Part shown: positions 13,184 through 44,106 of the stretch, piece by piece
Numbering within the stretch: the stretch's first letter is position 1
Layout: the number at the start of each line of letters is the position of its first letter
Assembly (NCBI GenBank): GCA_963789335.1
Contig: CAWBKH010000013.1
Location: forward strand, 3,174-67,173
Direction: 5' to 3'
Length of the DNA: 64,000 nucleotides
Origin: an uncultured Verrucomicrobiae bacterium
GTDB lineage: Bacteria > Verrucomicrobiota > Verrucomicrobiia > Limisphaerales > UBA11358
Position numbers and translations under genes: made by a program
The notes under the pieces: generated by a model
What the model saw: only the letters and a program-made list of their open reading frames with translations
Told to the model about the DNA's origin: nothing
The model's database searches: none

Positions 13184-14824
13184 TCAGAACTTGAGGGTCA
13201 GGTCCACCTGATAAATCTCGTAGTTATTGATGGGGTTTATCTGGGGGATGTCCTGACCGCTGCCACCGGTGCCCAGCGAATTGTTGATGCGGCTGGCGTC
13301 GCCCCAGCGGAAAGTGGCGATCAGGTTGTCGGTCAGCCCATAAGCCGCGGCCAGGTAGATGCCTTCCAGATTTTCTTGGCCCTCGAAAAAGTCCGTGTCC
13401 AGCAGATTAGGGTCCAGCGAATATTGTTCGATGTGCTGCCAGTAGGTCTTGATGTCCCACCCGTGCCGCTGCGCAGTTGTTCCATTGGCCATTCCCAAGC
13501 TGCCCCGGCTGGCCAGCTCCAAGCCGATTTGATAGGCTTTCACATCACTCGTTTGCGCGGAAAAAGAATGAGGTATGGCAATGCCGGGGTTGGAAGATAA
13601 AACAGCCTGGTAGGCGGTGGCGGCCTCGCGGGCCCGCTCTGCCCCATCCAGGTTGTAGGCCACATCGCCAAAGAGCCGGGCATCCAGCCGGCTGATTTTG
13701 AAATCGAATTCAAAGGGAACTTCCAACACCAACAGATGGTCGAGGCCGACTTGATTGAAAGGGTAATCGGCGCTTTGATAGCCAATCGCGCCCTGAGGCG
13801 CCGGGTTCGGGTATCCGCTGTAACCGGGCGCGTAGCCACGATTAGAACCACCGAAGTAATAATACGCACCTTCACCGATATAGGGATCGCCGAAATATGG
13901 GGAAAAAGCAGACGCGCTGTTCAGGCCACTCTGCTGAAGTCCAATATAATTGTATAACGTGGCTGCAATCTTCGCGGAAACGTTGGTGGTAATATGATAG
14001 TTAAAGCCGCCCTGCCAGGCAAACATGAAAATATTGTCCGCCTGCTGCCCGGTTCCTGCTGCTGTTCCACTAGGAATCCCCAGTCCTGCGGAGGCGGAAT
14101 TGGGGTCGAAGTCTGCGTAAAGAAATTGCCCAAGCGTGGCAAAGAAGTCCACCGGGCCGACGGTGTATCTCAAACGCTCCGCGAAGCCCTCCGGGCTGAT
14201 GCTCCCATTCCAAACCATAGGCGTGGTGTAGAGCGGATTGGGCATCTTGCCCACCGTCAAATCCACCCAATCCCACGGTCGCCAGCCAAGATACACCTGG
14301 CCAATGTTGATGCCCGAGTTGGATTTGCCGAAAGGGCCTTGGTACGGCGTGCTGCTCGAAGAGGTGCCCAGGGTGACAAAAGAGGAGCGCGGATTGTCGC
14401 CGGTGTCCAGCCTGACGCCATAGTAGAAGTTGTCAAACAGGTCGCCGCGCAAACCCAACCGCACCGCGTAACGAAAGCGCTGGAGGTCAATGCTGTTGCC
14501 CGCGGGGTCTTCCTCATAACGGTCCTCGTAACGCAGCCGGATGTCGCCAAACAGCTCCACGCTCCGAATACCCTGGCTGATCTTCCATTTGGAAGGCGGT
14601 GCCGAGGGCAGTTGCGTTTCGTTGGTGCGGAGCGCCTGCGCCTCGGCCTCGACCTGTTCGGCCTCCTGCTGCGTGACGAAGCCTTTCTTGATAAACAAAT
14701 CCAGCAGCGGGTCGGTGGTATTGGTGGAATCCGCACTCCATCCCCGGGTCGCTACGCTCACGAGTGCCATCATGATAATCCCTGCCAGCCAGGCTGCCCG
14801 GCACCTTGCTTTGATTATTCGCAT
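13184..14824 (-). CDS. Putative porin (Porin_5-type outer-membrane beta-barrel)
   Basis: Signal peptide; LLDLFIKKGFVTQQEAEQV N-domain; FGDIRLRYE...RFRYAVRLGL; C-terminal YQVDLTLKF with terminal Phe. Confidence 0.8.
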   Translation of the reverse strand: MRIIKARCRAAWLAGIIMMALVSVATRGWSADSTNTTDPLLDLFIKKGFVTQQEAEQVEAEAQALRTNETQLPSAPPSKWKISQGIRSVELFGDIRLRYEDRYEEDPAGNSIDLQRFRYAVRLGLRGDLFDNFYYGVRLDTGDNPRSSFVTLGTSSSSTPYQGPFGKSNSGINIGQVYLGWRPWDWVDLTVGKMPNPLYTTPMVWNGSISPEGFAERLRYTVGPVDFFATLGQFLYADFDPNSASAGLGIPSGTAAGTGQQADNIFMFAWQGGFNYHITTNVSAKIAATLYNYIGLQQSGLNSASAFSPYFGDPYIGEGAYYYFGGSNRGYAPGYSGYPNPAPQGAIGYQSADYPFNQVGLDHLLVLEVPFEFDFKISRLDARLFGDVAYNLDGAERAREAATAYQAVLSSNPGIAIPHSFSAQTSDVKAYQIGLELASRGSLGMANGTTAQRHGWDIKTYWQHIEQYSLDPNLLDTDFFEGQENLEGIYLAAAYGLTDNLIATFRWGDASRINNSLGTGGSGQDIPQINPINNYEIYQVDLTLKF

Positions 14825-14871
14825 GAGGTGGGAATGCTGCCGTTCCAATGCGGCGAATTCGTGGCGCGACG

Positions 14872-14888
14872 GTTACAAGTCGGTTACA
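14872..14888 (-). promoter_or_regulatory. Pho-box-like direct repeat upstream of the porin
   Basis: Gene sense TGTAAC-cgact-TGTAAC (11-bp period). Confidence 0.6.
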
Positions 14889-15035
14889 AACCGCAGGCGC
14901 TTTGTTCCAGTCGGTCTGTAGCAATGAAATAAAACCAAAATCAGGAACGAAGGTGGAGCAGAGGCCGCGTTCTTCCAGAAAAACCAATCATCCGGCTTTC
15001 TACCGAAAGCCGCTACGTTTGTAATTTCCAACAGA

Positions 15036-16259
15036 TCACCATCGCAGGACACGATAGCACCGTTGGGGAGTAACGGCGGGATCCGTCAGTTGCAGCATGC
15101 CGCCAGTGCCGGCGTGCAGCGGCAGCGATCGCCAGGCGCTATCGGTGAGGGAGTTTTTATATTCCAACTGATAGACCCGTCCGTTTTGCGTCGGCAGAGA
15201 GACGCTAAAACCGTTCGTTCCAAGAATGGGCTGGGTCAGCACCGCCTGGATCACTGGCGGACCGTTTCCCACCAATGCCAGACTATGCACGTCCCCGGCG
15301 GCAATCTGCACCACATCATTCAAGTTGGTCGGCACGATGTTTTGTAAGTAATCCACGTTAGTATCCGAACCGACACCGGCGCCCCAAGCCCACACGGTTC
15401 CATCGCTCTTCAATGCCAAGCTGTGCCAGCCCCCTGCCGCGATGGCCACGATATTGCTCAAACCCGTGGGAACATTGGTTTCACCGTAAGTGTCCAGCCC
15501 CCACGCAACCACAGTTCCGTTGGCCAGAAGGGCAAGATTGTGAAATCCCCCTGCCGCGATGGCCACGACGTTGCTCAAGCCGGCGGGAATGTTCGTCTCG
15601 CCATCGTCGTTATCTCCCCACGCAAACAAGGTGCCGTCCGACTTCAGCACCAGGTTATGATAGCCACCGGCGGCGATGGCCACCACATTGGACAAACCGT
15701 TCGGAACCGTTCCCTGGCCGTAATCCACATTCACGGAACCTTGCCCGCCCCAAGCGGCCAGGGTGCCATCGGATTTCAAAATCAGACAATGGTAAAAGCC
15801 GCACGCGACGGCCACCACATTGCTTGGATTTCCGGGGACATCAAGCTGTCCGTAGGTATAGTCCCCAACCACAGCCACCGTGCCATCCGACTTCAGTGCC
15901 AGACTGTGCAGTTCCCCGCAGGCAATCGCCACATAATTACTCCCCGCCGGAAAATCGGTCTGGCCCACCGAATCATCGCCCCAGCCTTGCAACGTGCCAT
16001 CGGCCTTCACTGCCAGACTTTGACGCCAACCGCCCGCTACTTGGACGGCATTAGTCAGATTGGAGGGGACCATAGACTGGCCATAATTATTTTGGTCCGG
16101 CGGATTGGAGACGAACGTTCCCGCTCCCCACGCGACCACGGCGGTTCCGGCGCGGACATCCAGCGCCAGACTGAACACCGCCAACATCAAGGCTGGCAAT
16201 TTCAAAAACAATCTGCCCCGGCACCCGGTCACGCATCGTATGCTGCTGATAACGGCCAT
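15036..16259 (-). CDS. Secreted RCC1-repeat beta-propeller protein with a C-terminal 'RxYRV' domain
   Basis: Repeated IAAGGxHxLALKSDGTVxAWG units; C-terminus PTQNGRVYQLEYKNSLTDSAW...GTGGMLQLTD...QRCYRV. Confidence 0.85.
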   Translation of the reverse strand: MAVISSIRCVTGCRGRLFLKLPALMLAVFSLALDVRAGTAVVAWGAGTFVSNPPDQNNYGQSMVPSNLTNAVQVAGGWRQSLAVKADGTLQGWGDDSVGQTDFPAGSNYVAIACGELHSLALKSDGTVAVVGDYTYGQLDVPGNPSNVVAVACGFYHCLILKSDGTLAAWGGQGSVNVDYGQGTVPNGLSNVVAIAAGGYHNLVLKSDGTLFAWGDNDDGETNIPAGLSNVVAIAAGGFHNLALLANGTVVAWGLDTYGETNVPTGLSNIVAIAAGGWHSLALKSDGTVWAWGAGVGSDTNVDYLQNIVPTNLNDVVQIAAGDVHSLALVGNGPPVIQAVLTQPILGTNGFSVSLPTQNGRVYQLEYKNSLTDSAWRSLPLHAGTGGMLQLTDPAVTPQRCYRVLRW

Positions 16260-16318
16260 TGTTCATACCTATAGTTCCCGTGGCTCGGCGCTGTCAAACA
16301 AGCTCATGCGTTTTGCTT

Positions 16319-16335
16319 GTTACAAATGGGTGACG
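16319..16335 (-). promoter_or_regulatory. Pho-box-like direct repeat upstream of the RCC1 gene
   Basis: Gene sense CGTCAC-ccatt-TGTAAC. Confidence 0.55.
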
Positions 16336-16715
16336 GGCTGGCTTGGTGGAAACTGACGACTGAAAGTATGTCCAGGTCCGGTTCGGTCATTTCAATCTGC
16401 CGCGGAAAACAGTCAAGAAGCGTTAAGAGTCGGCGGTTGGCAAGCCGGCGCTCCAGGGTTTTTCAATCCGGCCAACGTTACCTTCTTGCGACGAAGCCCT
16501 CCAAATCTCCAATCCGCGCTCCGGAATCATTTTAAGTTTAATGCAAACAACAACTTACAGTTTCGGCTTTCAAGTCTTAAAATAGACAACCCATGTCCTC
16601 TAACTTGAAGCGAATCAGTGTTGACCCATGATAAAGTTTTGCCTGTTGAACCACTTTGTGGTCAGGCACGGACAAATTGGAGAATGTCAAACAACAGCAA
16701 CAGCATTAAAATTAT

Positions 16716-17522
16716 ATGAAAAAATTAACCAGCGCAGCAATACTGATTGGCGGAGCCATCCTGGCTTCCCAATCCGCGTTCGCACAAACACAGACGTTCA
16801 CGGCGAACGACCTGTACTTTGGGTTTGAAAATTACAATGGGGGCGCGACGGAGGATTACATTATTGATCTCGGCCCGGCTTCCGGCATTGTCGGCGGTTC
16901 CTCCCCGGTCAATCTCAGCGGCGACTTTTCACTGAGCGACTTCAACGCGGTCTTGGGCGGCTCGGCCAGCCTCAATGCGGGCGTGGTTGGCGGCAGTCAG
17001 TACAACCCGCCCGGATGGGACATTTATGCCACGCAGTTGCGCAGTGGCGGACCCGGAAATCCGGCAATGCCAGGCTCCGTTATGAGCACTTCAGAGGGTC
17101 CAATCTCGACGTTTGGCGAATCTCAAATTTCAACCTCGATAGCGGCGCTTTCGACCCTGAATGCGCCCACGGCGGGAATCGGCCTTCTGGACACCAGCCT
17201 GTCGTGGACTTCCGACGTTGAGCCTGCTCCCAATCAGGCCATTCAAACTTTTTATGGAAACTCCGGCATCAATCCCAGCTCGGCCATCGGCAGCGGCGGC
17301 GTGCTTTACGAAGACCTCTGGAAGGCGACGGCCACCTATACCCAAGGCGGTGCCTTTCAATATGAGGGCTATCTTACACTGGACCTCAGCGGCGGCAGCC
17401 CGAACCTGACCTTCACACCCAACCCGACTGCGGTTCCCGAACCGACCGTCCTTGGTTTGCTCGGCGGCGCGGGGTTTTTGCTTCTTTCAATTCGCCGCCG
17501 GTTGAGCCGCAACAAGGCCTGA
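16716..17522 (+). CDS. PEP-CTERM sorting domain protein
   Basis: Signal peptide; C-terminal VPEPTVLGLLGGAGFLLLSIRRR. Confidence 0.9.
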   Translation: MKKLTSAAILIGGAILASQSAFAQTQTFTANDLYFGFENYNGGATEDYIIDLGPASGIVGGSSPVNLSGDFSLSDFNAVLGGSASLNAGVVGGSQYNPPGWDIYATQLRSGGPGNPAMPGSVMSTSEGPISTFGESQISTSIAALSTLNAPTAGIGLLDTSLSWTSDVEPAPNQAIQTFYGNSGINPSSAIGSGGVLYEDLWKATATYTQGGAFQYEGYLTLDLSGGSPNLTFTPNPTAVPEPTVLGLLGGAGFLLLSIRRRLSRNKA

Positions 17523-17597: not shown

Positions 17598-18932
17598 ATG
17601 AAAATCAGCACTCACATCACTGCCGCGCTGCTCGCCTTGGGAATCGTCTCCCAGGCCGGCGCCGATCCTGTCGTTTACCTGACCGGTTCAACGGCCTTCC
17701 GCTCCACGGCTGACACAGCGATATTGAACAACACCGGCACCAACAACGGCGGCTTGTTTGATGCCGGTTCCGTCACCTATGTGACGTATGGCAACGCCAA
17801 TCCACTCAGCGCCAATTACCTGGTTGTGCATGGCACCATCAATAACGGCGCAACGCCCGTCTATCTTGACGTGGCGTGGAGCGGTTCCGAAGCCGGCATC
17901 GCCTCAGCCTGCAATACCACGCTTAAAAATACGGATCGCAACGGCAATGTCATCAATCTGGCCGGTTCGCCGGAGCAATGGCTTAACGTGAACGCGGTTG
18001 CGCTGAACGGCAGCGCCATCTCCACCAATCCGCCATCCTACCTGTTGGAAACCAACTCGGACGGAACAGCCGATTACCACGGAGGGGATCTGGCCCAGGC
18101 GGACACGTCCCAAGCGGTTTCCTGGACGCCATTTGTGGCCAACACGCAGCAAGCTATAACAAACTACGGCACTGAAGGCGTGGTCACGTTCGCCATTTCG
18201 AAAAATGTCCAGACAACGCCCTCGCAGGCCTGGCTGGATTGCACAAACATAACCATTCCTCAACTGACTGTCCTGACCGGTGCTGGCTTCCTGCCGGCAG
18301 GTTTCATAAGCGGGAATACAAGCGACGACAGCCAGTTCGTTTACCTTACGGGACGTAACCGGGGTTCCGGCACGCGGATGAACTTCTTGGCAGACCAACA
18401 TTACGGCACCAAAAACGGCGTCCAACAGTATTCCGTCGGCTTGGGAATTGAGGAGCCGGCGAATAACACGCTCATCCTCACCAACGAGGGCAACAACGGT
18501 TATGAAAGCGGCGGTGGAACTGTAAAAGCGCTGTTCATCCCCGGCAGTTGCCAGCAGACCGATCCATTTACCGGAAACAGCGGTTGGTTTGTCATCGGCT
18601 ATGCCAGTCCGGGAGATCTTCTGAATCCTGCCAACACTGTGGGCGTCAATAATTGGCTGACCGTAGATGGCGTGCCTTCTAATAACCAGACCATTGAGAA
18701 CGGCCAATGGTGGTATTGGGGCCATGAACATCTGTATGGCAAATACCAGATCAGCGGCATTCAGCAAACCTTGGGCACCGATCTGTTTAATGCCATCGTC
18801 AACACGCTTAACGTTCAGCAGCTTGGACTCCTTCCGGGAAATCACGATAACGCCATAGCCAAGCAATACATGAATTGCACCAAGAGCAGCGACTCGGCTT
18901 ATCCCACCCCAAGCGCCCCGGGTAATCCTTAA
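17598..18932 (+). CDS. Secreted PstS/DING-like periplasmic-binding-fold protein
   Basis: Signal peptide; N-terminal LTGSTAF, GRNRGSGTR (compare PstS R-x-x-GSGT), SGG and IGY motifs. Confidence 0.55.
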   Translation: MKISTHITAALLALGIVSQAGADPVVYLTGSTAFRSTADTAILNNTGTNNGGLFDAGSVTYVTYGNANPLSANYLVVHGTINNGATPVYLDVAWSGSEAGIASACNTTLKNTDRNGNVINLAGSPEQWLNVNAVALNGSAISTNPPSYLLETNSDGTADYHGGDLAQADTSQAVSWTPFVANTQQAITNYGTEGVVTFAISKNVQTTPSQAWLDCTNITIPQLTVLTGAGFLPAGFISGNTSDDSQFVYLTGRNRGSGTRMNFLADQHYGTKNGVQQYSVGLGIEEPANNTLILTNEGNNGYESGGGTVKALFIPGSCQQTDPFTGNSGWFVIGYASPGDLLNPANTVGVNNWLTVDGVPSNNQTIENGQWWYWGHEHLYGKYQISGIQQTLGTDLFNAIVNTLNVQQLGLLPGNHDNAIAKQYMNCTKSSDSAYPTPSAPGNP

Positions 18933-19173: not shown

Positions 19174-20133
19174 GTGAAATTAAAGATTTCCATCTGGCTG
19201 AATATGACTTTGCTCGGCGGCCTGATTTTTGTCCTGATGAACCAGCGAAAGGAAGAAACCACCGCCGCGCCGGTTTTATCTGAAGCCAGACCGCCGTTGC
19301 GGGCGATTGCCACGCCCGCAGCTCCGGCGTCTTCGGACATGGAAACCGCGCCTTTTCATTGGAGCCAGCTTGTGTCTGCGAAGGATTATCGGGCTTACAT
19401 CGCCAATCTGCGCGCCATCGGCTGTCCGGAACCGACCATCGAGGACATTGTCAGGGGCGACACCGACCGGGCGTTTGCCTGGGAACGCAGTCAACTGGAT
19501 CTGGACGGCGCCGGCACGGGCCCGTGGTCGCAGGCGCGGGAGATGCAATTGGTGGCCAGCTTGTTGAGCGGCCAGCCGCCGGTTGAAACTGCCGCCTTGG
19601 CGCAAAGCGCGGAGAATCCGATGGATGGAAACAGCGGCAACAACGAAGCCTCTCAAACGGCCACCCCGCCGCAAGTTGCGGCGAATCAAACGCCGGAGAA
19701 TACGGGTGGCATGGTTGCTCAAGTTCCTGTTCCGTCACAAAATGCCGAAAGGACAGCGCCATCCTACCCGTTGTTCCTCCAGAATGTGAATTGGAGCGCC
19801 TTGGGGTTCAATGCCGACCAGCAGGCCGCCATCGCGCAGGTGCGGCAGCAGTTCTTGGGCGAGATTAACGGTCTGAGCCAAAACCCCAACGATCCGGCGA
19901 GCCAGAATTCTAATCCATCGGTTCCCGACTCCAACAACCCGGCTCCCCTGACGCAATGGCAAACGGCCCTGCAAAACGCCGATGCCCAGTTGCTCGCGTC
20001 GCTGGGCAGCGATGGTTACGAGGCTTATGTGCAACAGCAATACCATAGCTGGTATCAACCCCAGGTGGTCGCGGCCAATGCGGAAGGAAAGCCTCTGGTA
20101 ATTAACCCGGATGCGTTCTCGGTTTCACCGTAA
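19174..20133 (+). CDS. Membrane-anchored hypothetical protein
   Basis: N-terminal hydrophobic segment; PFHWSQL...DYRAYIANLRAIGCPEPTIEDIV motif; helical C-terminus. Confidence 0.7.
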   Translation: MKLKISIWLNMTLLGGLIFVLMNQRKEETTAAPVLSEARPPLRAIATPAAPASSDMETAPFHWSQLVSAKDYRAYIANLRAIGCPEPTIEDIVRGDTDRAFAWERSQLDLDGAGTGPWSQAREMQLVASLLSGQPPVETAALAQSAENPMDGNSGNNEASQTATPPQVAANQTPENTGGMVAQVPVPSQNAERTAPSYPLFLQNVNWSALGFNADQQAAIAQVRQQFLGEINGLSQNPNDPASQNSNPSVPDSNNPAPLTQWQTALQNADAQLLASLGSDGYEAYVQQQYHSWYQPQVVAANAEGKPLVINPDAFSVSP

Positions 20134-20286: not shown

Positions 20287-21222
20287 TCACTCGCTGCGCT
20301 TTTGTTGGTTCGTAGGATTTTGGGCGTGAAACTCGGCCACCATCCGCTCCGCTTCGGCAAATTGTTCGGGCGTGAGCGCATGATTTAGGTTGTATTCTTC
20401 AAAGGAATGCCGGCCGGTTGCGTTCCCCTGTTCTGCGCTCAACGCGAACCATTTGTAAGCCCGCACCTTGTCATGGGGAAGCCCGCCGTCGCCATCCTCG
20501 TACATCAAGCCCAGGTTGGCCTGGGCCATGGCGTCGCCCCTTTCGGCCGCCCGGCGATACCATTTGGCCGCCTCCATCAAATCCGTCTTCACGCCCCAGC
20601 CGTTTTGATACAAAAAAGCCAGATTGTTCATGGCGCCCACGTAACCCTGTTCAGCCGCCTTACCGAGCCATCTGGCCGCCTCGGCATAGTTGACATGTTT
20701 GGTGTCACCGGGATATTCGCCGTTGAGATAGAATTGCCCCAAGGCGTTTTGCGCATAGGTCTGGCCGTGTTCGGCGGATTTCTGCCACCAAGCCACGGCT
20801 TCATCAAAATCCTGTGGCACGCCGTTGCCGTGGGCATAAGCGTAACCCAGGCAGTATTGAGCCAGCGAATCTCCCTGCGCGGCCGCCTTGCGATACCACT
20901 GGAGCGCTTGCGGAAAATCCTGTTTGACGCCCAGGCCGCGCGCGTAATAAGAGCCGAGGGCGGTCTGGGCATGGGCGTACCCTTGATCGGCGGACTGGCG
21001 GAGGTACTCAGCCGCCTTGGCATAATCCTGCGGAACCCCTTCTCCATTTTCATAACACTGGGCAAGCTCATACTCCGCCCGGGCATTGCCTTGGCCTGCC
21101 GCTGACTGGACGGCTTGAAAATGGGAGCGCGGCGAAGAAACACAACCGCCCGTGGCCACAATCAGTAATGCCGATGCCAGCCGGATGCCCGCTATTGGAT
21201 ATCTACGCATGTTTAATTCCAT
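20287..21222 (-). CDS. Sel1-repeat (TPR) putative lipoprotein
   Basis: About seven AQxxLGxxYxxGxGVxxD..A..W...AA.QG repeats; lipobox-like ATGGC. Confidence 0.9.
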   Translation of the reverse strand: MELNMRRYPIAGIRLASALLIVATGGCVSSPRSHFQAVQSAAGQGNARAEYELAQCYENGEGVPQDYAKAAEYLRQSADQGYAHAQTALGSYYARGLGVKQDFPQALQWYRKAAAQGDSLAQYCLGYAYAHGNGVPQDFDEAVAWWQKSAEHGQTYAQNALGQFYLNGEYPGDTKHVNYAEAARWLGKAAEQGYVGAMNNLAFLYQNGWGVKTDLMEAAKWYRRAAERGDAMAQANLGLMYEDGDGGLPHDKVRAYKWFALSAEQGNATGRHSFEEYNLNHALTPEQFAEAERMVAEFHAQNPTNQQKRSE

Positions 21223-21376: not shown

Positions 21377-21490
21377 TTGTAAAAACCGCCCATGCGTCCG
21401 ATTATTTGAAGTTCATGTCCTGACACAGGTAGTTTGAATCGCCAATCTTGGCTAACCTTTCCTCTCAAAATTATGACAAACAAAGGAACA

Positions 21491-22534: not shown

Positions 22535-22686
22535 TTAAGTTTGGCTTGTCATTGTTCGTTTCGTGGGCTGCCCGTGGTTCAGAGCGGCCAGCCTTTTTTG
22601 TCTGAATCGAAAAGGATGGCTTCGACAATGGGCCGGCGGCGTTCCATCGCTGACCGGCGTTCCCTTTCGCGCTATACCGTACCCGC

Positions 22687-23556: not shown

Positions 23557-23587
23557 CCGGAGGGAGGGTAATGCGTCATTTTCAATG

Positions 23588-23637
23588 GTAGGGACGCCGC
23601 GCTGCGGCGTCCGGACAGCGCAGCGCGCTGTCCCTAC
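23588..23637. repeat. GTAG-type REP doublet
   Basis: GTAGGGACGCCGCGCTGCGGCGTCC / GGACAGCGCAGCGCGCTGTCCCTAC. Confidence 0.75.
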
Positions 23638-23749
23638 AAATTGATATTCAGCGGCAACCCGGCCACCAACGCGGGAAACTTCCACCAATCCATCGGACAA
23701 TCTGTCGGCAGCGCGCGGCCTTCCGGGTGAGGCCGAAAGCCTTTTACGT

Positions 23750-23838
23750 GGCCTGCCGCGTGAGGCGGAGCCTTTTGCGCGGCACAACCGCGTGGCGTAG
23801 CTTTACGCGGCATTTTTCCGGCTGTCAACCGGCAGTCC
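23750..23838. repeat. About 90-bp direct repeat, copy 1
   Basis: The 18-bp GGCCTGCCGCGTGAGGCG and the 37-bp TTTACGCGGCATTTTTCCGGCTGTCAACCGGCAGTCC are identical to those in copy 2. Confidence 0.85.
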
Positions 23839-23988
23839 TTGATGAAACTGTTTCAACCACGAAACACACGAACCACACGCAAACTTCCGCTCCAATCGTA
23901 AATCGGCAATCGTAAATCCCGACGCCCTGCTGGCCGGCATCGGCCTCTAGGTCCTGCGCCAAAAATCCTCCGCGGTGGAGAAACTGGA

Positions 23989-24219: not shown

Positions 24220-24384
24220 GTTTATGTGATCACAGAAATATGGCTTCCTTGGTGCGATTCCGTGTATCGCAAACACGATAATGCGGCTTCTGTGACTGTC
24301 AAATGCGATGTGCCAACGGCCCCCGCTGTTTCTCTCCGCCCAGGTGACGCTCTTTCCCGGCAGCTTTTGGAACCGACGCCGCGC

Positions 24385-27028: not shown

Positions 27029-27038
27029 GCAAACGAAT

Positions 27039-36282: not shown

Positions 36283-36315
36283 AACGCCATTGCTGCTGGA
36301 ATAAATTCGTTTTTT

Positions 36316-36332
36316 GTAACATTCAGGTGACA
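36316..36332 (-). promoter_or_regulatory. Pho-box-like direct repeat directly upstream of tpsA
   Basis: Gene sense TGTCAC-ctgaa-TGTTAC, between the tpsB stop and the tpsA start. Confidence 0.6.
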
Positions 36333-36334
36333 AG

Positions 36335-38914
36335 TCAGAACTGCGCCGTCAGCGCAAAATTAAAGAACGGCTGGTATGCCGAAACGGTGCCGGCGCTCAA
36401 AAGCGGCCAGGAGAAGAGAAATTGTGCCTGCCAGTGGGACCCGGTTGCGGCGGAGAATCCAAAACCCGTGCCCCAAAGCGGGGTTCTGGCCTGACGACCC
36501 TGGGGGGGATCCAGCAAATAGACGTCTGCATAATCCATATAGACCGAGCCGCGAATCGTCAGCGGCGCCCCGTCATAGACGGAGCCGACCACATGCGCCG
36601 GCGTTTGCTGTTCAAGGCTGACATGCCAGCCGGTGTCGCCGAAAACCTCGCCTTCGTGATAGCCCCGGACGCTGTTGACGCCACCCGCGCCATATTGTTC
36701 GGTACTGACCAACGGCTCGCTGGACCATTGGCCGTCCGCACGGATGGACGTCGTCCAATTGGTGTAAAAATCAATTTCCTGCGAGAAGCTGGGCCGGAGG
36801 ACCACCCAATGGCCGGTGGATTGAGCCGAGCCTGTTATAAATTGGAGACTTTTTTCACCCTCAAGTTCCACGCCTTGGTTGGTAAGCGTAGAGCTGGAAT
36901 ACCAAAGATTGGCGCTCAAGCCCAATCCCCAAGTGGCGGGACCAAACGCATCTTGCAGGCTCGCGCTGTAATTCAGCGATAAAGGCAAATAGTCCAGCGT
37001 CGGGTAGGTCGCCGGTACGGCGGATTCTTCATTCGCCGGGGGGTTTGCAACAATTTGGCCTGAAGAGTTTTTATAATAAGTCAAGTCGGTGAAAATATTG
37101 GTTCCATAGGAGCTCAAAGAATAGACTTTGTAATCAAGTCCCCCGGATAAGGAGGAATGGACACTGCCAATTTCCGGCAACGGTTTGGCCAACTGGAATC
37201 CAACATCTTCGTTAATCGTAACGTCCTGGTGAACTACTTGAGAGGTGAGCTGGCGCACAAAGGGAATGTCAAACAGGGTCTCACTGGAGATGGTTTCAAC
37301 GCCGGTGTCAATGGTGGCGCGGCTGCCGTACACAGTCAGTTCAGGCTGGCCAGAAGGCGGCGGCAGCCGGAATTGGCGCGTGGCTTCGCTGTAGCCGAAA
37401 CTGCCGGGTTTGCTCGCCACCACGTCCTCGATTGGCTCCGGGTTGCCCAGCGGCAGGCGGTAAAATCCACTGTAGTAGGCGACGATAGGCTGGTCGTAAA
37501 AATTCCATTGGCCACCCTGCTTATAGAGCTCCGGTGAGAAACCGTATTGGACGCCGAGCGAATTTTCGGCCTGCCAGAGATTGTCATAGACGGCCGAGCC
37601 GTTCACGCGCAGGTCCGGTGTGCCGGGCGAGTTTTGATTGTTGAATTCCACCTTGGCGTGGAGCGGCAGCCGGTCCTTGATGTTGAGGGTGAGTTCGCTG
37701 GTGTCTGGCACCGGGCCGGGACCGATGACGGGATAAATTTGCCGATCCTGATTGGCGTTGGCCCGGTTCAGTTCGGCATTGAAGATCGGGCCGTTGAGCA
37801 CCATGTTCGTGTGCAGGCTGGGCAACGCGCGCATCACGTTGTTGGAACTGAAGTAGCGGTTGCCAGTAACTTTGATGTCCGCCAGCCGGCCTTCCAACAC
37901 CCGCAATTTCACGGTCGCATTGGTGAGTTTCTGTTGGGGCACGTCCACCGCCACCGTTACATAGCCGCGCTCATGGTACGCCTTCCCCAGTTCGGTCACC
38001 ACCGTCTCAATCCCATCGAAGCTGACATTAGTGCCAAAAGCGCCGTCTATGTTGGTAATCGCCTCACCGATGGCCGCCGACGGCAAAATGGAGTTGCTGT
38101 TGATCAGATATTTTTCCACCTCAAACCGGGGACCGGCATTGGTCGAAACCACATGAACCCGGGTGTCTTTCGCCTCGGCATTCAACTCGGTCATCTTCCG
38201 ATGCAAGGCGGCGATCGCTTGGTACATTTCTGTGGGAGTGGCTGGTTTTGTGGCGAAGTTGATTGCCGGCGGCGCCGCATTGGTGGTGGCGGAGGCAACC
38301 GGCTTTTGGGGAGGAACGGGGGCGGCAGCCGGCGGTTTGGACACAATTTCCACACCGTTGCTCAGACTCAGGTAACGTTCACCAGCCACCACGATTTGTG
38401 GAATGGCTGTTTGAGCAACGTTAAACGTGACGATGCCGTCGGTGATTTGCTCCGGCACGAAGGCGATGCTTATCGCCGGATAACCTTGATTATGGTATTC
38501 CAATTGCAGGTCTGAGGCCGCCTGCACTATTTCCTCCAAACTGAGGTTCGGCCCGGCGTATTTGGAAACGATGGAGGCCACGGTATTCGTAGGAAGTAAT
38601 GGACTGCCTTCTACGACATAGGCCCGGACATTGAAGTGAGGAGCCGAGTTGCTTTCGACCATGACTGTTGCTTTGGCTGCCAGCAAGGAGGCCGGGGAGT
38701 TTTGTGAAGGAACAGATTCGGCTGCGGACGTTTTCAACGTCGTTCCTTGTACCCAGCAGCAAACAAGCAACAGCAGGCAAACGGCGCGGCTGCACTCAAA
38801 CCTCGGGCAAAAAAGGGAAAGCCGATCAGTCATATTTGCATTCGTTCGGCGCATGTGAATGCAACGCGACGGCAGAAGCGTGTTTGGTCGCGCAACATTG
38901 ATTGAACAGCCCAT
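36335..38914 (-). CDS. ShlB/FhaC/HecB-family TpsB outer-membrane transporter with an extra POTRA-like domain
   Basis: POTRA segments (F-x-V-x-x-Y...Y...GY...V-x-VP-x-Q), VRGYHEG motif, C-terminal ALTAQF. Start uncertain. Confidence 0.9.
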   Translation of the reverse strand: MGCSINVARPNTLLPSRCIHMRRTNANMTDRLSLFCPRFECSRAVCLLLLVCCWVQGTTLKTSAAESVPSQNSPASLLAAKATVMVESNSAPHFNVRAYVVEGSPLLPTNTVASIVSKYAGPNLSLEEIVQAASDLQLEYHNQGYPAISIAFVPEQITDGIVTFNVAQTAIPQIVVAGERYLSLSNGVEIVSKPPAAAPVPPQKPVASATTNAAPPAINFATKPATPTEMYQAIAALHRKMTELNAEAKDTRVHVVSTNAGPRFEVEKYLINSNSILPSAAIGEAITNIDGAFGTNVSFDGIETVVTELGKAYHERGYVTVAVDVPQQKLTNATVKLRVLEGRLADIKVTGNRYFSSNNVMRALPSLHTNMVLNGPIFNAELNRANANQDRQIYPVIGPGPVPDTSELTLNIKDRLPLHAKVEFNNQNSPGTPDLRVNGSAVYDNLWQAENSLGVQYGFSPELYKQGGQWNFYDQPIVAYYSGFYRLPLGNPEPIEDVVASKPGSFGYSEATRQFRLPPPSGQPELTVYGSRATIDTGVETISSETLFDIPFVRQLTSQVVHQDVTINEDVGFQLAKPLPEIGSVHSSLSGGLDYKVYSLSSYGTNIFTDLTYYKNSSGQIVANPPANEESAVPATYPTLDYLPLSLNYSASLQDAFGPATWGLGLSANLWYSSSTLTNQGVELEGEKSLQFITGSAQSTGHWVVLRPSFSQEIDFYTNWTTSIRADGQWSSEPLVSTEQYGAGGVNSVRGYHEGEVFGDTGWHVSLEQQTPAHVVGSVYDGAPLTIRGSVYMDYADVYLLDPPQGRQARTPLWGTGFGFSAATGSHWQAQFLFSWPLLSAGTVSAYQPFFNFALTAQF

Positions 38915-39481: not shown

Positions 39482-40354
39482 ATGAAGCGACCGCAGCGTA
39501 CATACGAACCTCATTTGGTCATTCGGGAAATTTCGGTGCCGCCAGGGGGAGAATGGGTGCCGCGATCGCCCGGTTGGTCGCTGATTCAAATGGCCCGCGG
39601 AACCGGTTATTACCTTCAACCACAATTGAGTCAAGAGCTTAAAACAGGAACGGCTCTTTTGGTTGCGGGTCATGGGCAAGGAAGCATTCGCGCCAGCCAA
39701 TTGGGCGGGTTGTCACTATGTGTGTTCAACGTGATTCCGGCGCGGCTTACCGGCCTGATCACCTTGGGCGAACAGGATTTTCTCGAGACGGCGGCCGCCC
39801 GGAAGGAATTTCCCCTTCGAATTCTTCCACCGCAAAATCCGGTTGCCGTGAAAATGATGGAACTGTACGCCGGTCGGAGTTCGGCTGGATTGTTATTCCG
39901 ATTGAACCTGCTTCAACTTTTTGCCGAGGTTTTCGGCAGTGAATTGGAGCAAGCCGCGTCCAATTGGGAGACCGCCGACGCCAAGGAGCGGTTGCGGGTG
40001 TTATTGGAGCGGACGCCGTCGGCTGAGTTGCTGGAAATGAGCTTCGACGAGTTGGCGCGGATGACCCATTGCACGTCGCGGCATCTAAGCCGGATTTTTC
40101 GCGAGTTGGTTGGCATGTCATTTCGCGACAAGCGCGCCGAACTTCGACTGACGCGCGCCCGCGACCTGCTCGCCACCAGCAGATCCAAGGTGGTGGAGGT
40201 GGCCTTGGAGAGCGGATACAAGTCTTTAAGTTTGTTCAATCTGATGTTCACGCGCCATTTTGGAACCAGCCCCGGCCGGTGGCGGCAGAAATATCGGAAC
40301 AACGGAAACGGCAAAAGCATTCGAAGCAAAAGAGTGCCACCGTTCGCGATTTAA
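39482..40354 (+). CDS. AraC-family transcriptional regulator
   Basis: LARMTHCTSRHLSRIFRELVG...VALESGYKSLSLFNLMFTRHFGTSPGRWR. Confidence 0.9.
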   Translation: MKRPQRTYEPHLVIREISVPPGGEWVPRSPGWSLIQMARGTGYYLQPQLSQELKTGTALLVAGHGQGSIRASQLGGLSLCVFNVIPARLTGLITLGEQDFLETAAARKEFPLRILPPQNPVAVKMMELYAGRSSAGLLFRLNLLQLFAEVFGSELEQAASNWETADAKERLRVLLERTPSAELLEMSFDELARMTHCTSRHLSRIFRELVGMSFRDKRAELRLTRARDLLATSRSKVVEVALESGYKSLSLFNLMFTRHFGTSPGRWRQKYRNNGNGKSIRSKRVPPFAI

Positions 40355-40504: not shown

Positions 40505-41410
40505 ATGATTGTTGAGCGACATCTCATCTTGCAGGAGTTGACGCTGCCGCCCTCCACCGAATGGCCTCCCCGTTGCAATGGATGGCTGATGGTGCGTGTG
40601 GCGGTGGGAACGGGCTACTGGTTGCAACATGGTGTCGAACCCCGGCAATTGACGGTTGGTGATGGTTTGATTGCCACTCACAATGTTGACGGTGTCATCC
40701 GGGCCAGCCAGCTTGGCCCGCTGAAACTGCAGTTTTTCACCGTCCAATTGCAATACCTCAACGGCGTGCTCACCGTGGCGGAATGGCAGCAACTGGAGAT
40801 TGACCCGAACAATCCAGCGCCGCCCGTTTCCCTTTTCAAGGCTGAAGAACCCATCGGAAAAAGATTCATGCGGTTGGCCGACCAAACACGCAGCAACCGG
40901 TTGCCTATGCGCTGCGCGTTGCTGCAGCTATGGGCCAACGCCGTGGCCGGCCTGTTGCCGGCCTCGGTTTCTGCTTCCACCAGCGGCAATAAACTCCGCG
41001 ATCATATCCGGGAACTGGTCGGGCAAATGACCGAAGCCGAACTTTCCGAACATTCCTTGACGGAGCTGGCCCGGCAGTTGCATTGCAGCGAACGCCATTT
41101 CAGCCGCTTGTTCCGCGAGGAATTCGGCGTGCCATTTCACGCGCGGCAGATCGAATTGCGCCTTCAACGCGCGCGCCAATTGCTGGCGGAACCCGATGCC
41201 AAAATTATTAATGTCGCCTACGACAGCGGCTACCGGCACCTCGGCCTGTTCAATGCCTTGTTTAAAAAGCGTTTTGGCCAGACGCCCGCTGAATGGCGCC
41301 GGCAATACCTTCGTAAAGGCCATTCGTCTTCCCATAGAAATCATCCCTCTCATTTGGCTGAACGTGCCGCCCTCTTGCTTGCGGTACTCAGCCTTCATTT
41401 CATTTTGTAA
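40505..41410 (+). CDS. AraC-family transcriptional regulator (paralogue of the upstream gene)
   Basis: LARQLHCSERHFSRLFREEFG...VAYDSGYRHLGLFNALFKKRFGQTPAEWR; the N-terminal domains are similar (HLxxxE..PP..EW.PR..GW...GTGY). Confidence 0.9.
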   Translation: MIVERHLILQELTLPPSTEWPPRCNGWLMVRVAVGTGYWLQHGVEPRQLTVGDGLIATHNVDGVIRASQLGPLKLQFFTVQLQYLNGVLTVAEWQQLEIDPNNPAPPVSLFKAEEPIGKRFMRLADQTRSNRLPMRCALLQLWANAVAGLLPASVSASTSGNKLRDHIRELVGQMTEAELSEHSLTELARQLHCSERHFSRLFREEFGVPFHARQIELRLQRARQLLAEPDAKIINVAYDSGYRHLGLFNALFKKRFGQTPAEWRRQYLRKGHSSSHRNHPSHLAERAALLLAVLSLHFIL

Positions 41411-41505
41411 GTATGGACGCCTGCCTCTGTAGAATGAATGGAACGTTGGTTGACATGCACTTTGACTTGGTCGCGGACAACGCATCCAGTCGCCATGAAT
41501 TTGAA

Positions 41506-41522
41506 TGTTACCTATTTGTAAC
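41506..41522 (+). promoter_or_regulatory. Pho-box-like direct repeat upstream of exbB
   Basis: TGTTAC-ctatt-TGTAAC. Confidence 0.6.
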
Positions 41523-41725
41523 CTGCATGCAGAAGCCATTGGTATAAAGTGCAAAAGCAGTGCTATGTGTGTGGCCCAGCCCAACATCTGGTTTTGTAAA
41601 CCGTCACCGGAACTCGGTGAAACGGTTGTGTCATCAATGGGCCGGCCGATCTGCAAATTCGCCTGTGATTTTAACAACCAGGAATTGTCCAAAAACCAAA
41701 CCTCAACCAAATATTTATAACCACC

Positions 41726-42598
41726 ATGTTTGTTCAACCCCTGTTCGCCGCAAATGCCGCGGTGTACGCCATTCAAAACGCCACCCCTGAGGGCAAGATC
41801 ACCGTCATCGTGCTGCTGATCCTGTCGTTGTTCAGTTGGACGATCATCATCACCAAGTTCCGCCAGTTGATGATCGCGCGCAGGGCGACCAAAATGTTTT
41901 TTGCCGCCTACAACTCCACGCGCGATCCGCTCGACATCCAGCGCAAGGGGGAGACATTCGACGGCGCGCCCGCCTACCAGCTTTACATCCGCGGTGCGGA
42001 TGAACTGGTGTATCAATTGAAAAATAATCCGGTGCAGGTTGAAATCGTTGCCCCCACAACTCCGACGGAAGGGGTGGAACATACCAACACCGATTTTCTT
42101 GCCCGGTCCACGGCGGTGAAGGTCAGCATGGCGTCATTCGATGCGGTGAAGGTGATTTTGGAAGAAGCCGCCAGCGGGGAGGCGATGTCGTTGGAAAAGG
42201 GCATGATTGTGCTGTCCACGGCAGTCGCAGGCGGGCCGTTCATCGGGTTGCTCGGTACGGTCTGGGGCGTCATGTCCACCTTCGCCGGTATCGCCGAAAG
42301 CAAAGCCGCCACCCTTACGGCCATGGCACCCGGTGTGGCGGCCGCCTTGGTCGCCACGGTCACCGGTCTATTGGTGGCCATCCCGGCCATGTTCGCGTAC
42401 AACTTCATGGTTACCACCATCCGTGCCATTACGCAGGAGTTGGACGGGTTTGCCAGCCGCTACGCCAATCAGATTGAACACGTTTATGTGGATCACCGTC
42501 CGCTCGCCGAGGAAATCCGGAACGCCAATGAAGTGCTGGCCGGTCGCATCGTCGGCGCGCTGAAAGACAACGAAGCACACGCGCTCGTTGAATCATGA
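41726..42598 (+). CDS. exbB: MotA/TolQ/ExbB proton-channel protein
   Basis: GPFIGLLGTVWGVMSTF...APGVAAALVATVTGLLVAIPA. Confidence 0.9.
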   Translation: MFVQPLFAANAAVYAIQNATPEGKITVIVLLILSLFSWTIIITKFRQLMIARRATKMFFAAYNSTRDPLDIQRKGETFDGAPAYQLYIRGADELVYQLKNNPVQVEIVAPTTPTEGVEHTNTDFLARSTAVKVSMASFDAVKVILEEAASGEAMSLEKGMIVLSTAVAGGPFIGLLGTVWGVMSTFAGIAESKAATLTAMAPGVAAALVATVTGLLVAIPAMFAYNFMVTTIRAITQELDGFASRYANQIEHVYVDHRPLAEEIRNANEVLAGRIVGALKDNEAHALVES

Positions 42599-43011
42599 AG
42601 AAGTGTTCCAAGTCCGCGCATGAATCGTTGACGCAGTTGAACATCACACCGCTACTGGATTTGGCGTTTGTACTGCTGGTCATCTTTATCATCACGACCA
42701 TACCGCCGGTCAACGATCTGAGTTTGAAATTGCCCACCGCAACCAAGCATCTCAAGGATCCTCCCCGCAAGGCCAATTACATCACCGTCCAGGCCGACGG
42801 TGCGATGTATTTGAACAAGGCGAAAATTGCCAATGCCTCCGACATGCTACAGACCCTCATCGGCCTGCGCACAGATGACCCGGACCTGAACATCATCATT
42901 CGCGGCGACAGCCAGACCAAATACCGGCAGATCCGCGCCGTGCTCGATGTGTGCCAGCAGGCCAACGTGCCCAAGGTGGACTTGGCCACCGAGCCTGCGA
43001 ATGGAAAATAA
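42595..43011 (+). CDS. exbD: ExbD/TolR protein
   Basis: LNITPLLDLAFVLLVIFIIT; IIIRGDSQTKY. Confidence 0.9.
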   Translation: MKKCSKSAHESLTQLNITPLLDLAFVLLVIFIITTIPPVNDLSLKLPTATKHLKDPPRKANYITVQADGAMYLNKAKIANASDMLQTLIGLRTDDPDLNIIIRGDSQTKYRQIRAVLDVCQQANVPKVDLATEPANGK

Positions 43012-43014
43012 CCC

Positions 43015-43682
43015 ATGCTGCCGCAGACTCAGCCGCGTAAAAAACGCAACTCGTCAAAGGTGAACCTGCTCATCTCGTTCGTCTTTCATTCGTTGATCGT
43101 GCTCGTGGCGCTCTATTTTGCCGCGCGACATGGATTGCTGGGCAAACAAATCCAGAAAATTTCGGTGGAGATGATCAAGGAGAAACCGCCCGAGAAGCCC
43201 AAGCCGCCGGAAAAACCCAAGGTCGAGCCGCCCAAAGTCGAGCAGCTCAAAATCGTTGCCACGCCCAAAGTCGAGCCGCCCAAGGAAACGGCGCCCCCGT
43301 GGCGGCTCCGCCCACCGTCGCGCCGCCGGCGGCCGAACTGCCGTCGTTCGTCTTCAGCGGTGGCCGGACCGTTGAGAGCAGTTCCGATCCCGTCCAGCTT
43401 TATAAGGGATTGCTCGAATACGCGTTTCGCTCAAAGTGGGACCGTCCCCAAAACATGCACGACGATGATTACGTGGCGGAGGTGAGGGTGGCGGTGGATA
43501 GCGACGGACAAATCAGCCATCTGAAATGGCTCAAAGGCTCGGGCAACACGCGCTGGGACGAGTCGGTGCGGCGCGCTTTGGCCGCCGTGACGCAGATGGA
43601 TCGCCCACCACCCACCAATTTTCCGCCGCAGGTGGTGATTCGTTTCGATGTGCAGCAGGAAACCGAACCGGTGCTCCAGTGA
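43015..43682 (+). CDS. tonB: TonB/TolA-like energy transducer, frameshifted in a C5 run (43294..43298)
   Basis: TM anchor with SFVFH, Pro/Lys-rich linker; adding one C joins the C-terminal domain (WDRP...VAVDSDG...GSGN..WD.SV..AL). Confidence 0.8.
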
Positions 43683-43686
43683 TTTT

Positions 43687-44106
43687 GTGAAAAAAACGTC
43701 CCACAGCCATCATAGTTCGCTCAGCGAATTGAACATCACGCCGCTGCTGGATTTGGTGTTCGTGCTGCTGGTCATTTTCATCATCACCACGCCGCAGATG
43801 ATGAACAATCTGGAGATGACGCTGCCTTCGGGGAAGCCGCCGCCCAAAACCAACCAGCCCAAACCCAAAATCAACAAGATTGTGGTGGACGCAAAGGGCC
43901 AAACCTTTTTGAACGATGAGCTGGTTACTATTCCCCAGCTCAAGGACAAACTGCAGCAATTGCAGGTGGATAATCCCGACTTGAGCGTGGTGGTCAAGGG
44001 CGCCGACGCCGTGAATTACCAGCACATGATCAACGTGCTGGACGTGCTCCGGCAATTGGACATCACCAAGGTCGGCCTGGCTACGGAGGCGGGCGCAACT
44101 CCTTGA
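43687..44106 (+). CDS. exbD: Second ExbD/TolR protein
   Basis: LNITPLLDLVFVLLVIFIITTP; VVVKGADAVNY; GTG start. Confidence 0.9.
   Translation: MKKTSHSHHSSLSELNITPLLDLVFVLLVIFIITTPQMMNNLEMTLPSGKPPPKTNQPKPKINKIVVDAKGQTFLNDELVTIPQLKDKLQQLQVDNPDLSVVVKGADAVNYQHMINVLDVLRQLDITKVGLATEAGATP

Follow-up and report, generated by a model that had tools for sequence, protein, structure and literature searches.

Why should a two-partner secretion (TPS) pair, of a kind taught to work at the outer membrane without any energy source, stand beside a proton-driven ExbB-ExbD-TonB-ExbD motor in a gene cluster with no TonB-dependent receptor? We asked this of positions 13184-44106 of a 64,000-nt stretch of DNA, here called the window, from an uncultured soil bacterium of the Limisphaerales (Verrucomicrobia subdivision 3) known from metagenome assemblies. 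The gene map of the window combines an open reading frame (ORF) listing with Pfam and NCBIfam scans, and tRNA genes were called separately. We read the span as a Pho-regulon phosphate-starvation island, a local and rearranged version of the Pseudomonas aeruginosa-type TPS pair with its private Tol/Ton-like motor cassette, and put the probability of this reading at about 60%. The cassette and its phosphate link are already known from P. aeruginosa, where the mechanism is unexplained. What is new is a form from the Verrucomicrobia, with a candidate Pho box, a PstS-fold paralogue, a porin paralogue and proteins with sorting tails, and, in its relatives, a fusion of regulator and transporter.

In P. 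aeruginosa the genes run pdtA-phdA-pdtB-exbB2-exbD2-tonB4-PA0696, the last being a putative porin, with LysR and AraC regulators nearby, and the Ton set has been called 'still uncharacterized' (PMC7035377, PMC2729926). The locus, PA0690-PA0701, also includes PA0697-PA0700, PA0701 (LysR) and PA0701a (AraC) and is part of the PUMA3/sigma-VreI and PhoB regulon. Under phosphate (Pi) limitation, the levels of PdtA and PA0696 rise strongly (PMC9769906). An earlier note on this DNA had drawn the parallel with this phosphate-starvation locus, and it was right to do so, as both the gene row and the induction by Pi limitation are in print (PMC7035377, PMC2729926, PMC9769906). The same note knew of no description of such a system in Verrucomicrobia. 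The verrucomicrobial form is indeed new; the association of TPS genes, ExbBD and PA0696 is not, having been noted across several proteobacteria in 2009 (PMC2729926). On the function of tonB4, the literature searched held nothing beyond the P. aeruginosa regulon papers.

The secretion pair and its motor

The TpsA exoprotein gene (31465-36333, minus strand) encodes a Pfam TPS domain at residues 57-289 (75.4 bits), and this N-terminal domain carries the NPNG motif ('LQNPNGF'). Read from its TTG, TpsA has 1622 amino acids (aa); the likelier start is a Met at 36282. The transporter gene tpsB (36335-38914, minus strand; 859 aa) ends 2 nt from the listed tpsA start, and its product matches POTRA_2 in two stretches (87 bits) and ShlB (46 bits). 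Residues 85-186 of TpsB also match the canonical POTRA region by BLAST against the TpsB of relatives, which indicates a duplicated, extra N-terminal POTRA-like module. A TPS domain with NPNG, next to a transporter with POTRA and a ShlB-type barrel, is by sequence what defines two-partner (type Vb) secretion, and the FHA-like exoprotein and FhaC-type transporter proposed for the locus are thus borne out. The best-conserved part of TpsA is its C-terminus, where the last 45 residues contain an acidic run, KKKK, about 8 residues and then (G/S)RVTV(I/L)LP; the tail in the window reads DDEKKKKKK...GRVTVILPKAS. The tail motif R[VI]T[VI]xL is present in 59 of 67 TpsA across the order. This tail is strand-like and loosely resembles a TonB box (31465-31560 in the window, and also in the TpsA of L078-L157). 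Beyond the TPS domain, Pfam recognised no enzymatic or ligand-binding domain in TpsA.

The four motor genes lie on the plus strand. They encode an ExbB/TolQ-like proton-channel subunit (exbB, 41726-42598; Pfam MotA_ExbB 97 bits), a first ExbD/TolR-like subunit (42595-43011; Pfam ExbD 87 bits), a TonB/TolA-like arm composed of an N-terminal membrane helix, a Pro/Lys-rich linker and a C-terminal domain (43015-43682), and a second ExbD/TolR-like subunit (exbD2, 43648-44106; Pfam ExbD 96 bits), in the order that had been recognised from the letters of the sequence. ExbB scores 135 bits as NCBIfam TolQ and 101 bits as ExbB, both under the equivalog cut-offs, and the C-terminal domain of the arm scores 25.6 bits as tonB_Cterm (cut-off 27.1) and 27.2 bits as TolA. 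Judged by these scores, ExbB and the arm lie between the Ton and Tol families, with neither NCBIfam cut-off reached.

In the assembly, the helix and linker of the TonB-like arm are in one frame and its C-terminal domain in another, with the break at 43293. Contigs from three independent public soil runs (two studies) all have one extra C in the C-run after 43293, and we therefore consider the gene intact in the organism and the break a homopolymer assembly error. A pseudogene was rejected for the same reason, as the extra C in the independent contigs restores the frame. The TonB orthologues of relatives are single-frame (for example in G004). Other homopolymer errors may exist elsewhere in the assembly.

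That the window holds no TonB-dependent receptor and no tolB or pal had been noticed before and stands. No such receptor was found in the window or in any of about 100 related loci, and Pfam scans of the window placed no tolB or pal near the motor. The single TonB-dependent receptor of the genome (C2:1073942-1076227, 761 aa) is on a different contig with its own TonB and ExbB; in the row at C2:1071416-1076227 the receptor is accompanied by an amidase-like gene, by the receptor's TonB, which scores 44 bits as tonB_Cterm, and by an ExbB. Five ExbB/TolQ paralogues are present in the genome for this one receptor.

Is the association of motor and secretion pair particular to this genome? Most species of the genus have TpsB homologues, as do scattered families of the order, and we compared relatives over 40 kb around them. 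The genes for AraC, TpsB, TpsA, the Sel1 protein, both PepA-like proteins, the 444-aa protein, the Pro/Gln-rich protein, the RCC1 protein and Porin_5 co-localise with the four motor genes in about 20 related genomes, in varying order, so the grouping is not due to chance. Co-occurrence across genomes had been proposed as a check by the earlier note, and the components do recur together widely, so that the refuting outcome named there, a lack of co-occurrence, did not arise. In other families and in part of the genus, the arrangement is a co-directional operon, (PepA-like, 444-aa)-AraC-TpsB-TpsA-ExbB-ExbD-TonB-ExbD. A scan of species-representative genomes yielded 199 loci, 80 of which were inspected as the order-wide set; all 80 belong to Verrucomicrobia subdivision 3/Limisphaerales assemblies from soil, peat and lakes. 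Where tpsA is complete and followed by more than 1.2 kb of sequence (60 loci), exbB is on the tpsA strand in 50, with a median gap of 20 nt. In five loci of the window's type (L148, L149, L153, L156 and L157), the motor genes are encoded on the other strand, upstream of tpsB. As a side observation, a conserved lipoprotein of about 175 aa without a family match is encoded 0-22 nt after exbD2 in L086, L104, L106, L109, L114 and L117, and this gene of the relatives' motor operons is absent from the window.

The porin is a less regular companion. Within 10 kb, a Porin_5 of the island type is found in 6 of the 80 loci and one of the canonical type in 10, and the TPS pair is always present. Because the pair is constant and the porin occurs in a minority of loci, the TPS pair is the motor's constant partner. 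The earlier note had suggested that the motor energises the porin or TpsB. Its link between motor and TPS pair gains support from the 50 loci with exbB a median of 20 nt after tpsA, while the porin as client loses ground on its distribution.

Phosphate-system paralogues and predicted Pho boxes

The island holds paralogues of both outer components of the Pst system, the porin and the binding protein. The Porin_5-type outer-membrane barrel predicted earlier is encoded at 13184-14848 (minus strand; 554 aa), with 112 bits to Pfam Porin_5 and 21.6 bits to Porin_O_P. The only other Porin_5 of the genome (C5:266219-267649) heads pstSCAB-phoU on contig C5, in the order Porin_5-pstS-pstC-pstA-pstB-phoU, and because it heads the pst operon we take Porin_5 to be the organism's phosphate porin. 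Both paralogues carry a short helix motif after the signal peptide (LLDLFIKKGFVTQQEAEQ / LLNKLEQKGILTVDEADQ) that resembles a SHOCT-type motif. A motor contact through this N-terminal helix motif of the porin is undercut by the ordinary pst porin, which carries the same motif (LLDLFIKKGFVTQQEAEQ).

The second paralogue is a 444-aa protein (17598-18932, plus strand) that would be a periplasmic or surface binding protein of PstS fold, as judged from its AlphaFold model and a fold search. Neither the protein nor 32 homologues gave a Pfam or NCBIfam match, a PDB sequence search with the protein was also without a match, and the family, at least 520 clusters, is unnamed throughout in public sources. 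The model, computed from an alignment of 33 homologues, has a mean pLDDT of 84.7, and in Foldseek every one of its 21 best PDB matches is a PstS protein (E from 1.6e-9 to 2e-3; TM-score to the target up to 0.75). The predicted structure thus folds like PstS; it carries about 180 aa of insertions, and in length the protein exceeds the PstS of the pst operon by 85 aa. Residues invariant in the 33 homologues (T29 G30 S31 F34, S95 G96 S97, D169 and R253...S257 G258 T259) match the four PstS anion-binding motifs (S/T-x-F, GSG, Asp and R-x3-S-G-T), the first three being paired by eye. GRNRGSGTR of the 444-aa protein aligns with RSDGSGTT of the genome's own PstS in hhalign, an alignment to a single PstS sequence that covers one motif only and has low probability. 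The description of this protein as PstS-like therefore holds at the level of the fold, where the top 21 PDB matches are all PstS, though no sequence family matches.

Upstream of the pst porin operon, 16 same-genus genomes conserve the repeat TTGTCAC-N4-TTGTAACA, with a third unit 22 nt further. The Pho box consensus of Escherichia coli is CTGTCAT-N4-CTGTCAT, and the conserved repeat has, as a sequence, the layout of a Pho box, with direct repeats at 11-bp spacing. We built a matrix only from the relatives' pst-promoter sites and scanned it over the 4.35-Mb genome. The best site of the whole genome (TTGTAACCGACTTGTAACC, 14871-14889, minus strand; 24.4 bits) lies 23 nt upstream of the island porin start and has orthologous sites in 8 relatives. 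The site ranked third (TTGTCACCTGAATGTTACA, 36315-36333, minus strand; 23.5 bits) is at the tpsB/tpsA junction, where sites are also present in 12 same-genus genomes and in 31 of 73 order-wide loci. The site ranked eighth (CCGTCACCCATTTGTAACA, 16318-16336, minus strand; 18.7 bits) is upstream of the RCC1 gene and orthologous in G014, G027 and G029, and the one ranked 25th (ATGTTACCTATTTGTAACC, 41505-41523, plus strand; 15.8 bits) is upstream of exbB, where G004 and G016 have an orthologous 20-bit site. The genome's own pst site ranks sixth with this matrix.

The chance of finding at least 3 of the top 8 sites within 0.75% of the genome is 2e-5. Sites are kept at orthologous promoters in about 20 relatives, their density in the 80 order-wide loci is about 10 times that of the genome, and the TPS-motor operon directly adjoins the porin-pstS operon in several genomes. 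Other top sites precede a response regulator with PhoB as its best NCBIfam match (on contig C2, starting near 1357917) and, at C7:16178, a gene for a 664-aa monogalactosyldiacylglycerol (MGDG)-synthase-type glycosyltransferase fused to a PHP phosphoesterase domain. Such an MGDG-type gene behind a Pho-box-like site fits a predicted phosphate-sparing remodelling of membrane lipids. Taken with the PstS fold and the pst-porin paralogue, the sites ranked 1, 3 and 8 lend computed support to the phosphate-responsiveness first proposed for the locus. Further top sites (C8:9545, C8:11548, C6:89858 and C2:1180826) precede genes for secreted proteins like those of the island, namely one with PEP-CTERM, one of 921 aa that ends in ...RFYRVTSP and one that is RCC1/LamG-like, and the predicted Pho regulon may take in a wider set of surface proteins.

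Regulators, surface proteins and the setting of the island

Two AraC-type regulator genes separate the secretion pair from the motor. AraC1 (39482-40354, plus strand; Pfam HTH_18 78 bits) is divergent from tpsB, and its position is kept in the relatives of the window's type (form B). AraC2 (40505-41410, plus strand) is the orthologue of the AraC half of AraC::TpsB fusions. In 66 of 79 loci, AraC and TpsB form a single open frame of 900-1200 codons (L078:10001-12889 and L079-L144; fusions are also found in G022, G033, G003, G011, G043, G047 and G059), in which the AraC sensor and helix-turn-helix (HTH) domain are followed by a basic linker, a signal peptide (AxA before QTN) and TpsB. NCBI and JGI annotate the fusions as single proteins with HTH_18, POTRA_2 and ShlB, and the region of the junction has matches in at least 1295 public protein clusters. 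Automatic placement of the junction succeeded in 116 of 120 fusions, where it consists of a basic stretch, a hydrophobic run (median 18 residues) and a small-x-small site before QTN, which in sequence terms is a textbook cleavable signal peptide. No fusion was found outside the order in 400 sampled genomes of the phylum; TpsB there is of the ordinary kind, with 500-590 aa. We found no description of an AraC-TpsB fusion, nor any polyprotein of a regulator and an exported protein of this kind, in the literature searched.

The window retains traces of such a fusion. AraC2 shares 70% identity with the AraC part of the fusions in G022 and G033, and its end is a basic linker with half a signal peptide (...ERAALLLAVLSLHFIL, followed by the stop), breaking off in the middle of the hydrophobic run; from these features it is a truncated remnant of an AraC::TpsB fusion. 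About 50 nt directly before exbB (41674-41725, plus strand) resemble a tpsA 3' end in a local DNA alignment with L078 (score 106), a fused-type relative with tpsA ahead of exbB, and are likely the scar of a lost tpsB-tpsA pair. The layout of the window is best read, from these sequences, as derived by the loss of one tpsB-tpsA pair from the place between AraC2 and exbB, with a second pair and a divergent AraC1 standing alongside. We also considered whether AraC2 requires a C-terminal membrane anchor and rejected this, as the hydrophobic tail is gone from the separate AraC2 orthologues of G004, G016 and G014.

What could a fusion of regulator and transporter achieve? The N-terminal helix of FhaC lies inside the barrel, so cleavage is expected to leave the regulator on the spent signal peptide. 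It is possible, if rather doubtful, that the AraC::TpsB polyprotein acts as an export-coupled switch, in which regulator and pore would be made 1:1 and drawn to the inner membrane by the signal peptide, and the regulator, once cut by signal peptidase, would be either held at the membrane or released by signal-peptide proteolysis. As with ToxR/CadC and the FecR- and VreR-type anti-sigma factors of cell-surface signalling, which regulated proteolysis sets free, the fusion of the relatives would place a DNA-binding domain at the inner membrane through one hydrophobic segment and may connect an envelope event to transcription; it differs from them in that this segment is a signal peptide, belonging to an outer-membrane transporter that shares the reading frame.

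The remaining genes of the island mostly encode surface proteins, and the sorting-tail and RCC1 proteins that the earlier note described are all present. A secreted RCC1 beta-propeller (15036-16259, minus strand; Pfam RCC1_2 168 bits, WD40_RLD 167 bits) has a C-terminal beta-sandwich ending ...CYRVLRW. The PepA-like secreted protein at 16716-17522 (plus strand) has a PEP-CTERM tail (TIGR02595 18.4 bits, cut-off 16; Pfam score 18.2, under the cut-off of 20.7) and a weak floc_PepA match. Two Exosortase_EpsH genes are present on contig C2, so that sorting tail and exosortases, the two parts of a PEP-CTERM/exosortase system as predicted from sequence, are both found in the genome. In a second PepA-like secreted protein (21434-22534, plus strand), an 'FYRV' C-terminal beta-sandwich replaces PEP-CTERM and ends ...RFYRVSAHY. 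The AlphaFold model of this 366-aa protein has a mean pLDDT of 61, is confident in the C-terminal sandwich alone and is too poor for a fold search; the gene for the FYRV-tail protein adjoins AraC::TpsB in 45 of the 80 order-wide loci. The cluster also encodes an N-terminally membrane-anchored Pro/Gln-rich protein (19174-20133, plus strand), without a Pfam or NCBIfam match and kept in the clusters of relatives, and a Sel1-repeat lipoprotein (20287-21222, minus strand; Pfam Sel1 196 bits, 6 repeats; lipobox ATGGC).

This is one conserved neighbourhood, interrupted by an unrelated insert. The insert (22535-31464) is missing from every relative's cluster examined, and the G+C content falls to 0.50 at 26-30 kb, compared with about 0.56 elsewhere. 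It holds a LysR regulator (22687-23556), an S-adenosylmethionine (SAM)-methyltransferase (24385-25176, minus strand), a kinase fragment (26193-26915), a 439-aa gene (27039-28358) and a 394-aa gene converging on it (28328-29512, minus strand), together with short ORFs and the second copy of an 80-aa gene (29614-29874). The first copy (12726-12968, plus strand) is beside a relaxase remnant at the left end of the island; the whole genome has these two copies only, with 76% protein identity. The methyltransferase is bracketed by 41-nt direct repeats (23802-23842 and 25304-25344) that are 98% identical and 1502 nt apart.

The span of 13184-44106 closely coincides with a 32.7-kb segment bounded by att-like repeats. 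The left repeat (12038-12060, plus strand; exact 23-mer CAATCCCGGCCATTGGCTCCATC) is formed by the 3' end of a tRNA-Thr(CGT) gene (11984-12058, plus strand), and the right repeat (44756-44778, plus strand) is an exact copy of that tRNA end. Just inside the left repeat is the remnant of a MobF/TrwC relaxase (12134-12484, minus strand), of which the N-terminal 117 aa only are left (NCBIfam MobF 83.8 bits, relax_trwC 71.8 bits); five further MobF-like copies are found elsewhere in the genome, and none near the cluster in relatives. This remnant is the only mobility gene between the repeats. A tyrosine integrase gene (10796-11902, minus strand) lies outside them, flanked by two different tRNA-Thr genes, that for tRNA-Thr(TGT) at 10640-10714 (plus strand) and that for tRNA-Thr(CGT); it may be part of a different element to the left, where restriction-modification genes are also found.

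No gene of either window flank was found near the cluster in about 20 relatives, and the cluster therefore sits in a different neighbourhood here than elsewhere. The right-flank gene XdhC was found in 9 of 18 relatives, with no tRNA-Thr upstream of it there, and G014, G018 and G029 have tRNAs 2-5 kb from the cluster with no tRNA-end repeat found. Because the flanks are not conserved in relatives, an empty integration site could not be shown. In this genome, then, the cluster is an island bounded by tRNA-Thr repeats, beside a relaxase remnant and broken by the 8.9-kb insert.

What the motor may act on

How would a phosphate-starvation island of this kind work? At low phosphate, PhoB would bind the boxes before the porin gene, the RCC1 gene, tpsA, tpsB and exbB. 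The Porin_5 paralogue and the PstS-fold protein would add capture capacity for a phosphate-type anion, and TpsB would export the TpsA fibre of about 1600 aa. The PepA-like proteins with PEP-CTERM and FYRV tails, the RCC1 propeller and the Sel1 lipoprotein may remodel the cell surface. The motor would act on the TPS pair rather than the porin, from an ancestral layout with exbB a few bases after tpsA. The likeliest force-dependent step, at a guess, would be control of the retention or release of TpsA, and the motor contact may be periplasmic, either at the KKKK...RVTVILP tail of TpsA, which would leave the periplasm last, or at the POTRA domains of TpsB. The two AraC regulators would add local control, AraC2 being derived from an AraC::TpsB fusion.

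The P. aeruginosa pdt locus, the nearest known counterpart, likewise has a TPS pair, ExbB-ExbD-TonB and a putative porin with AraC/LysR regulators, a likeness at the level of the gene row. In neither cassette is there a TonB-dependent receptor, and phosphate induction is shown there and predicted here. The island differs in having no extracytoplasmic function (ECF) sigma/anti-sigma pair, Hxc type II secretion, alkaline phosphatase or peptidyl-prolyl isomerase (PPIase). It has a second ExbD and a TpsA of about 1600 aa with the conserved KKKK...RVTVILP tail, it adds PstS-fold, PEP-CTERM, FYRV-tail, RCC1 and Sel1 proteins, and in its relatives a regulator is translationally fused to TpsB. With Bordetella FhaB/FhaC the island shares the TPS domain with NPNG, the TpsB with POTRA and ShlB-type barrel, and a C-terminal part of TpsA that could stay periplasmic and control release; FhaB/FhaC has no dedicated motor, its outer-membrane secretion is regarded as energy-independent, and the extra POTRA-like module is found in the island TpsB. 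Compared with PstSCAB-PhoU and its phosphate-selective porin (OprP/OprO in Pseudomonas), the island has a porin paralogue, the PstS fold and motifs and the same promoter repeat, whereas it lacks pstCAB and its binding protein is 85 aa longer, with no match to a PstS sequence model.

Several other explanations bear on the same genes. TpsA might be a scavenger of a phosphorus-containing substrate similar to HxuA, with the motor powering import through an unrecognised client and the PstS-fold protein receiving the cargo. The predicted Pho regulation and the membership of the PstS-fold protein and porin in the cluster point this way, and Haemophilus influenzae HxuA/HxuB/HxuC is a precedent for TPS coupled to TonB-dependent uptake (PMC4873976), as a TPS exoprotein there serves a TonB-energised outer-membrane step in nutrient acquisition (haem-haemopexin). 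HxuC, however, is a classical plugged TonB-dependent receptor, of which the island has none, and the motor genes lie outside the hxu operon. As neither the cluster nor about 100 related loci encode such a receptor, the genome's single one has its own motor, and TpsA has no recognised enzymatic or ligand-binding domain beyond TPS, we regard uptake as an unlikely function of the motor. The idea that the Ton-like motor energises Porin_5 for export or for assembly at the surface, with the N-terminal domain of the porin as the point of contact, draws on the adjacency of Porin_5 and motor in G036, G015, G027, L102, L140 and L120, on the P. aeruginosa order of tonB4 and then the putative porin PA0696, and on the fact that exbD2 and the porin gene would become neighbours if the island were excised as a circle. 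Against this, the island-type or canonical-type porin is found within 10 kb in the few loci given above, with the TPS pair always there; the N-terminal helix motif (LLDLFIKKGFVTQQEAEQ) is shared by the pst-operon porin, which has no adjacent motor; and Pfam finds no plug or TonB-box-bearing domain in the porin. We consider a porin client quite improbable.

A role in general envelope upkeep seems to us no more probable than the porin client. Here the motor would be a Tol-like maintenance paralogue, induced through Pho to stabilise the outer membrane during phosphate-sparing remodelling and without a specific link to the TPS pair. In its favour, the TolQ model gives ExbB a higher score (135 bits) than the ExbB model does (101 bits), the arm matches TolA as well as TonB, and the glycolipid synthase gene is also behind a top-ranked Pho-box-like site. 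The close coupling of exbB to tpsA in 50 loci and many families, a median of 20 nt, would not be expected for a general envelope function, and no tolB or pal is nearby. Finally, the cluster might be a patchwork of unrelated genes gathered by mobile elements at a tRNA hotspot and lacking any common function. The 23-bp att-like repeats, the relaxase remnant, the neighbouring integrase, the 8.9-kb foreign insert and the duplicated 80-aa gene would all suit such an origin, as would the absence of any flank gene common to a relative's locus. The insert aside, every gene recurs together with the others in about 20 related genomes despite rearrangement, and the genes have a conserved promoter motif in common, which makes a chance assembly hardly tenable.

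The preferred reading, a phosphate-starvation island whose motor serves the TPS pair, has its own weak points. The P. aeruginosa cassette is likened to the island by gene row, and the Pho box is predicted from where the sites lie and from their resemblance to the box of E. coli. ExbB and the C-terminal domain of the TonB-like arm fall below the NCBIfam equivalog cut-offs and score equally or higher as TolQ and TolA, and neither a TonB box nor a plug domain nor any other proven client of TonB is present in the cluster, the C-terminal motif of TpsA resembling known TonB boxes only loosely. In the window the motor is divergent from the TPS pair and not co-transcribed with it, and its original TPS partner appears, from the sequence, to have been deleted. 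The PstS-fold protein matches no sequence family and is not beside pstCAB, which is on contig C5.

What the locus means is first that a proton-driven motor is hard-wired to a TPS pair both in P. aeruginosa and across an order of soil, bog and lake Verrucomicrobia, and that the TPS pair rather than the porin emerges as its constant partner. The candidate Limisphaerales Pho box, the PstS-fold paralogue and the pst-porin paralogue tie the cassette to phosphate starvation independently, by computation, in a phylum far from that of P. aeruginosa. The AraC::TpsB fusion offers a simple experimental handle, as its cleavage, localisation and reporter activity are measurable in E. coli; if the proposed switch is real, the TPS-motor operon would signal, through its transcription, that the outer-membrane channel it encodes has been exported successfully. 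If the motor does control the retention or release of the TpsA fibre, this would be a new use of Ton/Tol-type machines.

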